A program made the position numbers and the translations under genes. Shown piece by piece: positions 61,772-61,857 of a stretch of 64,000 nt of DNA. Positions within the stretch are counted from its first letter, which is position 1, and every line of letters starts with the position of its first letter. The stretch is from Escherichia coli O127:H6 str. E2348/69. GTDB taxonomy: Bacteria; Pseudomonadota; Gammaproteobacteria; Enterobacterales; Enterobacteriaceae. The DNA lies in assembly GCF_000026545.1 (NCBI RefSeq), contig NC_011601.1. One strand, given 5' to 3'. The notes under the pieces are model-generated. The model had not been told where the DNA came from and did not search any database. It saw only the letters and a program-made list of their open reading frames with translations.

Positions 61772-61857
61772 GCCGGATGCGGCGCAAGCGCCTTATCTGG
61801 CCTACGATTCGGGCATATTTTGTAGGCATGATAAGACGCGCCAGCGTCGCATCAGGC
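61772..61857. repeat. Pair of inverted REP elements at the ybbJ 3' end / right edge of the accessory block
   Basis: gccggatgcggcgcaagcgccttatctggcctac and gtaggcatgataagacgcgccagcgtcgcatcaggc. Confidence 0.65.

Follow-up and report, generated by a model that had tools for sequence, protein, structure and literature searches.

The REP pair at positions 61772-61857 of the window (the whole stretch of 64,000 nucleotides of Escherichia coli O127:H6 E2348/69 DNA that was analysed) is an ordinary BIME-2-type doublet, in which a Y REP is paired with a Z2 REP in the opposite orientation. We hold with good confidence that this doublet colonised the spacer of an occupied haplotype of the cueR-ybbJ junction, and that it is not the insertion site of the island with which it is associated. 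REP/BIME elements and that island, O-island 29 (OI-29), have both been described already; at the island border, the comparison of alleles gives no support for REP-targeted acquisition of OI-29. Annotation is taken from RefSeq record NZ_CP059840.2 (E. coli E2348/69), which is 100% identical to positions 58100-62320 of the window.

Identity and fold of the REP pair

The first arm of the doublet is a Y-type REP at 61771..61805 on the plus strand (TGCCGGATGCGGCGCAAGCGCCTTATCTGGCCTAC), which matches the published Y sequence at 32 of 35 positions and has an exact 13-mer core at 61772. The second arm is a Z2-type REP at 61821-61857 (GCCTGATGCGACGCTGGCGCGTCTTATCATGCCTAC on the minus strand), which matches the published Z2 sequence at 35 of 37 positions and has an exact core at 61845-61857(-). 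REPs were typed by comparison with the three reference sequences (Y, Z1 and Z2) printed in PMC11208160. The arms are inverted and arranged tail to tail; the linker between the tails, as read from the sequence, is 16 nt long (61806..61821) and in the S-type position, and a tetranucleotide is found at the foot of each REP (CTAC at 61802-61805 and GTAG at 61822-61825). The exact REP core, GCCKGATGCGRCG, occurs at four sites in the window, namely 34436, 45865, 61772 and 61845(-), with 0.00 expected in shuffles, and the REP tail, CTTATCMGGCCTAC, at 0-1 mismatch is found in the window at the same three REP loci only (34436, 45817 and 61772). Thus, the pairs that a sequence-only reading of this DNA had listed at 34436-34533, 45817-45900 and 61772-61857 are all real by their core, tail and Y/Z1/Z2 matches, and its remark that REP/BIME elements recur at convergent gene ends agrees with the RefSeq annotation (mscK/rsmS, gsk/ybaL and a 120-aa ORF/ybbJ, respectively). 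In megablast searches of complete E. coli genomes, the REP portion of the query was found at a median of 9 places per genome.

The pair occupies the 102-nt spacer between the converging 120-aa ORF and ybbJ. Eighty of its 86 nucleotides are intergenic, and the last six (GCC TGA) are the end of ybbJ. On either strand it folds into one long hairpin with the linker as the loop (-53.9 and -58.5 kcal/mol; z-scores of -3.5 and -4.3). A terminator scan of positions 61000-62400 returned 0 terminator-like sites, and the hairpin, having no T-run behind it, is not a classical intrinsic terminator. Comparison with the Rfam naRNA4 family (RF02564) produced 28.8-32.2 bits for single REPs within 61735-61886, and the gathering threshold of 59.5 was not reached; membership of the pair in this family was rejected, with Rfam searched at gathering and at E<=10.

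In BIME-2 elements, Y and Z2 REPs alternate in orientation, the linker is short and the copy number varies (Bachellier/Gilson, in the account given by PMC3333891). Being bound and cleaved by DNA gyrase is a further property of this class. The pair at 61772 resembles them in having inverted Y and Z2 REPs, a short linker, a location at the 3' ends of genes, and a range of 1 to 8 REPs among strains. It differs in that E2348/69 has a single Y-Z2 unit, and in that 6 nt of the Z2 REP belong to the ybbJ frame and include its stop codon. REPINs, i.e., inverted REP doublets mobilised by the REP-associated tyrosine transposase RAYT (PMC3116915, PMC3337134, PMC3333891), similarly have inverted REPs that fold into one long hairpin; however, no RAYT gene is present within the window, and the 61772 copy has a fixed position in all occupied alleles.

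Empty and occupied cueR-ybbJ junctions

We compared the cueR-ybbJ junction in 5426 complete E. coli genomes, in five Escherichia lineages that are not K-12-like, and in species-representative genomes of other genera, which were scanned for cueR-ybbJ spacing. In K-12 the site is empty: the TGA of cueR and the ybbJ stop (TTA on the plus strand) are immediate neighbours, with 0 intergenic nucleotides and no REP. A 160-nt probe across the K-12 junction is found in one piece in 3205 of the 5426 complete E. coli genomes, and 3183 genomes overall match it with at least 99% identity. In most genera, cueR and ybbJ are likewise 0-34 nt apart and REP-free; this is the case in Salmonella, Citrobacter sedlakii, Enterobacter, Klebsiella and Kluyvera, and also in Lelliottia, Trabulsiella and Yokenella.

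REPs are confined to the occupied alleles, which have 1 to 8 of them and are found in about 2168 E. coli genomes and five further Escherichia lineages. A full Z2 REP is joined to the ybbJ tail in 1368 E. coli genomes, and 800 others have an X-only allele with a Y REP and a Z REP that bears an 11-nt internal deletion. Taken together with the empty form, these classes account for 5373 of the 5426 complete genomes, and about 53 are outside them. The sequence-only reading had suggested that the REP pair, REPs being hot spots for IS insertion and rearrangement, may be relevant to the way in which the block was acquired, had proposed comparing junctions with and without it, and had named an empty site lacking any REP as the finding that speaks against its suggestion. 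This is what the comparison reveals: the REP is absent from the empty form, in all 3205 of the K-12-type sites, and is found only in occupied alleles, so that by the reading's own measure a pre-existing REP as the entry point is refuted.

All five of the sampled lineages (Escherichia sp. E1V33, E. whittamii, MOD1-EC7003, SCPM-O-B-8794 and E. albertii) are occupied, with REPs against ybbJ. E. whittamii has an intact gene X and the four-gene module (see below), Escherichia sp. E1V33 also has X and the module, and E. albertii has X and REPs only, without the module. Such OI-29-type blocks in other Escherichia species cast doubt on the published account of four recent gains. The number of REPs at the locus is 2 in E2348/69 and 3 in O157/CB209, and in Escherichia sp. 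E1V33 (L011 6014-6404) there are 3.9 tandem 101-bp Y+Z2 units, a clear case of BIME-2 amplification as compared to the single unit in E2348/69. Near-empty sites that have REPs, sought as the L014-type junction at a coverage of at least 80%, were found in 0 complete E. coli genomes. Locus L014 itself is the one near-empty allele with REPs that was encountered, and, as it retains a fragment of the 120-aa ORF, it is a product of secondary deletion.

Many Citrobacter, Kosakonia and Phytobacter genomes have a different cargo at cueR-ybbJ, of about 2.87 kb and without REPs, which consists of a 251-aa and a 714-aa ORF (L018 7408-10238; L019-L024, L027, L029-L032 and others). The cueR-ybbJ junction is variable in several genera.

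Genes of the cueR-ybbJ block

The cueR-ybbJ block is O-island 29 of O157:H7 plus a decayed gene, X. In E. coli O157:H7 EDL933, OI-29 is 2,643 bp long and includes z0638, z0639 (gmrA) and z0640 (PMC5826968). The cueR-ybbJ gap in the O157 locus L005 is 2641 nt, and the primer arms published in PMC5826968 have exact matches in both L005 and the window.

The left border of the block is cueR (58114..58521, plus strand; ORF list and RefSeq), and the stop codon of cueR is abutted by that of a frameshifted remnant of gene X (58522..59236, minus strand), which is a RefSeq pseudogene with tblastn matches to L011-L015 and L084. The module of four genes follows. Its first member is a 68-aa ORF (59324..59530, minus strand; ORF list and RefSeq), kept in E. 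whittamii and Escherichia sp. E1V33, and next to it is a 140-aa lipoprotein gene, the homologue of z0638 (59527..59949, minus strand; ORF list, RefSeq and primer mapping). The homologue of z0639 (GmrA) encodes a 338-aa YadA-anchor protein (60003..61019, minus strand; Pfam PF03895, E 7e-12), and the gmrA-03 arms flank it exactly. The homologue of z0640, identified by primer mapping, is a 120-aa ORF that converges on ybbJ (61387..61749, plus strand), with its stop codon 22 nt before the Y REP. On the far side of the doublet is ybbJ (61852..62310, minus strand; ORF list and RefSeq), which encodes a 152-aa protein of the NfeD family and is the last gene of the qmcA-ybbJ pair. E2348/69 and O157 have the same genes in the same cueR-ybbJ position, with REPs at the ybbJ end; unlike O157, E2348/69 has kept the 0.7-kb X remnant beside cueR, and it has two REPs instead of three.

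Gene X has a GC content of 53-54%, and the four-gene module of 33-50%. X is intact, at 409 aa, in E. whittamii (L012 7409-8638), and a homologue of X is found at the same cueR-ybbJ position in Superficieibacter electus (L084 7408-8600), without a REP. Neither X, which is without a match in Pfam or NCBIfam, nor the 68-aa and 120-aa ORFs yielded a usable hit in searches of Pfam, NCBIfam and PDB sequences. The block has no annotated or visible IS, integrase or transposase gene, and no target duplication at the island border. A search for the four-gene module on plasmids retrieved two mislabelled chromosomes only, and on phages it retrieved none.

The z0639/GmrA ORF (60003-61019; L005 2633-3649) has a coiled-coil region and an N-terminal signal-like sequence, and is annotated in RefSeq as a YadA family autotransporter adhesin. 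Its product has been published as a transcriptional activator, GmrA (PMC5826968); judged by its sequence, GmrA is a YadA-type autotransporter, for which a DNA-binding role is unexpected.

On the other side of cueR, a 98-bp frameshifted remnant of an HlyD-type adaptor gene (58020-58117, plus strand) overlaps the start of cueR. It is at this point that a complete type I secretion operon (the OI-28 side) ends in O157 and others, so that the remnant in K-12 and E2348/69 is a deletion scar.

The 3' end of ybbJ and the break in homology

The position of the doublet at the right, ybbJ border of the block, as stated in the sequence-only reading, is borne out, with a 6-nt overlap with the ybbJ coding sequence; the break between the two kinds of allele lies elsewhere. 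On the left, no difference between K-12 and E2348/69 is seen up to the end of TGATTAAG, i.e., the cueR stop codon plus 5 nt. On the right, empty and occupied alleles part company 33 nt inside ybbJ, which is 27 nt beyond the REP. In E2348/69, this diverged tail (61852..61884, minus strand) differs from K-12 at 12 of 33 positions, as compared to 4% in the rest of the gene; between O157 and K-12 there are 13 differences in the 33-nt tail and 2% elsewhere. The true right edge of OI-29 is therefore 33 nt inside ybbJ, and, with the break 27 nt past it, the REP is inside the replaced segment and not at the joint.

The tail of the occupied type is close to those of E. albertii (2/33 differences) and E. 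whittamii (4/33), and the K-12 tail is 12-14/33 away from every occupied allele compared. Upstream of the last three codons the changes are mostly synonymous (ACG/ACC, CTG/CTA, CGT/CGA, GCG/GCC), which indicates that the tail patch is deeply diverged, not degraded. The C-terminus of YbbJ is ...AVSS* in K-12, fitting the widespread ...AVS[x]* of other genera, and ...AVIA* in the occupied alleles, where the Z2 REP opens with GCC TGA and these six bases serve as codon 152 and the stop codon (stop read as TCA at 61852-61854). The sharply bounded 33-nt patch suggests either that two haplotypes predate E. coli or that sequence was imported from a distant lineage.

Two derivations of the K-12 junction were tried and rejected. 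One was a single microhomology deletion, pairing GTGAT.AAG at the end of cueR with GTGATAAG of the Z REP; its predicted product keeps about 10 extra nucleotides and the TCA stop. The other was the origin of the K-12 ybbJ tail as a piece of gene X, with which it has only TTAAG in common.

The right edge of the island inside ybbJ, together with the stop codon inside the REP, means that published OI-29 deletions also alter ybbJ. The arms of the published delta-OI-29 construct end at ybbJ codon 150 (window 61852-61899; L005 4557-4604), and hence the mutant also loses the REPs, and its ybbJ is cut short by two sense codons and the stop codon. Loss of these ybbJ and REP sequences could contribute to the phenotype of the delta-OI-29 mutant.

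History of the doublet

In the history that we consider most plausible, the spacer would have come first and the Escherichia-family REPs second. Non-coding space exists at this junction only when something separates cueR and ybbJ; a REP would move in afterwards, and expansion and contraction would follow, as in other BIME-2 loci. We infer that the REPs arrived after the spacer, which fits the REP-free X allele of Superficieibacter, one outgroup. Later deletions are represented by several alleles: O157 is without X, MOD1-EC7003 without most of the module, and L014 without nearly everything.

A two-step history is unlikely by our estimate, yet it fares better than the other alternatives. Here, X and the REP pair would be older, and the low-GC four-gene module would have been inserted later beside the Y REP, in a REP-guided or REP-bounded event, for example, through cleavage by a REP-associated transposase or through replication slippage at the hairpin. 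X-only alleles (E. albertii and about 800 E. coli genomes) already have Y and a truncated Z next to ybbJ, and they have GGCTATAT plus the Y REP in common with E2348/69; divergence begins directly to the left, and the module starts 8 nt from Y. The GC contrast between X and the module given above points in the same direction, as does MOD1-EC7003, in which a partial 68-aa ORF is joined to the REP array, a second rearrangement that ends beside a BIME. However, the same pattern would be seen if the X-only alleles had arisen by loss of the module, and loss by deletion is clearly frequent at this locus (O157, L014 and L013); selection for an intact ybbJ would by itself put the ends of such deletions just before the REPs. 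The module has neither a target duplication nor a repeat at its flanks, it was not found on plasmids or phages, and the presence of X together with the module in E. whittamii and Escherichia sp. E1V33 indicates that the module is old.

It is very improbable that the accessory block as a whole entered at a REP pair already present between cueR and ybbJ. REPs are documented targets of IS elements, including IS1397, IS621 and others (PMC1525189, PMC11208160, PMC3333891), and the pair does sit at the ybbJ edge of the block. The empty sites speak against it, with 0 intergenic nucleotides and no REP in the 3205 E. coli genomes and a similar state in most other genera, and so does the lack of any near-empty REP site among complete E. 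coli genomes. The right-hand break is inside ybbJ, 27 nt past the REP, and the left-hand break is exactly at the cueR stop codon; the block has no IS or recombinase gene; and the exact IS621 target, ATCAGGCCTAC, is present in neither REP of the pair, which read ATCTGGCCTAC and ATCATGCCTAC.

Least credible of all is the view that the doublet, instead of being a passive repeat, encodes a small REP-derived RNA of the naRNA4, or nucleoid-associated, type: the sister pair at 45820-45897 passes the naRNA4 threshold and single REPs within 61735-61886 give 29-32 bits, but these scores are about half of the gathering value of 59.5, the naRNA4 model describes a head-to-head pair whereas the 61772 pair is tail-to-tail, and no promoter-like site faces the pair.

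Possible effects on transcripts and translation

Protection of mRNA 3' ends is among the roles of REPs summarised in PMC3333891, and a strong hairpin with no T-run, placed where two converging transcripts end, is the classical setting for it. The doublet, as a BIME-2-type element that settled in the spacer, would place a stable 3' hairpin on both the qmcA-ybbJ transcript (minus strand) and the transcript of the 120-aa ORF (plus strand), and by analogy it may stabilise the 3' ends of these mRNAs.

When a REP is less than 16 nt away from a stop codon, it reportedly stalls ribosomes and lowers translation (Liang, Rudd and Deutscher 2015, as cited in PMC12306157). The 61772 pair is similar to such stop-proximal REPs in that an ORF ends at it, at a distance well within the 15-nt limit; it is unlike them in that its distance to ybbJ is negative, with the stop codon within the stem, and it may be regarded as an extreme case of the rule. 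Since the ybbJ stop codon is inside the Z2 stem, YbbJ output is predicted to be damped in island-bearing strains, with lower YbbJ synthesis than in K-12-type strains; by analogy with the stalling REPs, this translational damping is probably exerted by the REP.

A broader picture can be drawn from these elements, and we put it forward only tentatively, as its three parts taken jointly are doubtful. The locus would have two haplotypes that predate the species, an empty one with the ancestral-type AVSS* end of YbbJ and an occupied one with AVIA*. In the occupied haplotype, the end of ybbJ, namely two sense codons and the stop codon, would have been rewritten by the REP, so that REP-dependent translational damping of the NfeD/QmcA pair would take place only in island-bearing strains. 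The REP doublet would be a fixed anchor, with later capture or loss of the OI-29 module taking place beside it.

Other palindromes and minor features of the window

The pair at 34436..34534 is a BIME-1, with a Y REP (33/35), a 35-nt L-type linker and an inverted Z1 REP (29/30), located between the convergent genes mscK and rsmS in the RefSeq annotation. The linker holds an IHF-like site, TTCAATATATTG, which is one mismatch away from the IHF consensus, WATCAANNNNTTR.

The pair at 45817..45900, between the convergent genes gsk and ybaL, consists of a Y and a Z2 REP (32/35 and 36/37, respectively) arranged head to head. In Rfam, positions 45820-45897 form the sole pair in the window that reaches the naRNA4 threshold (79.8 bits versus gathering 59.5). 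The first REP begins 14 nt past the gsk stop codon, within the reported 15-nt stalling range, and the pair has an exact IS621 target, which the 61772 pair is without.

The palindrome at 7730..7754, between the convergent genes fadM and queC, had been called REP-like; we now reclassify it as a locus-specific, single-copy hairpin with a perfect 9-bp stem. It has only the GCCGGATGC head in common with REPs and is found once per genome (a median of 1 place in 5424 genomes). As it matches no REP type and is single-copy, it is not a REP.

The only annotated IS in the window is an IS4-like ISEc13 transposase gene (19058-20431, plus strand), between an MGMT-family gene and ybaY, near ffs. The maltose O-acetyltransferase gene maa (23842-24394, minus strand) is annotated as frameshifted in E2348/69.
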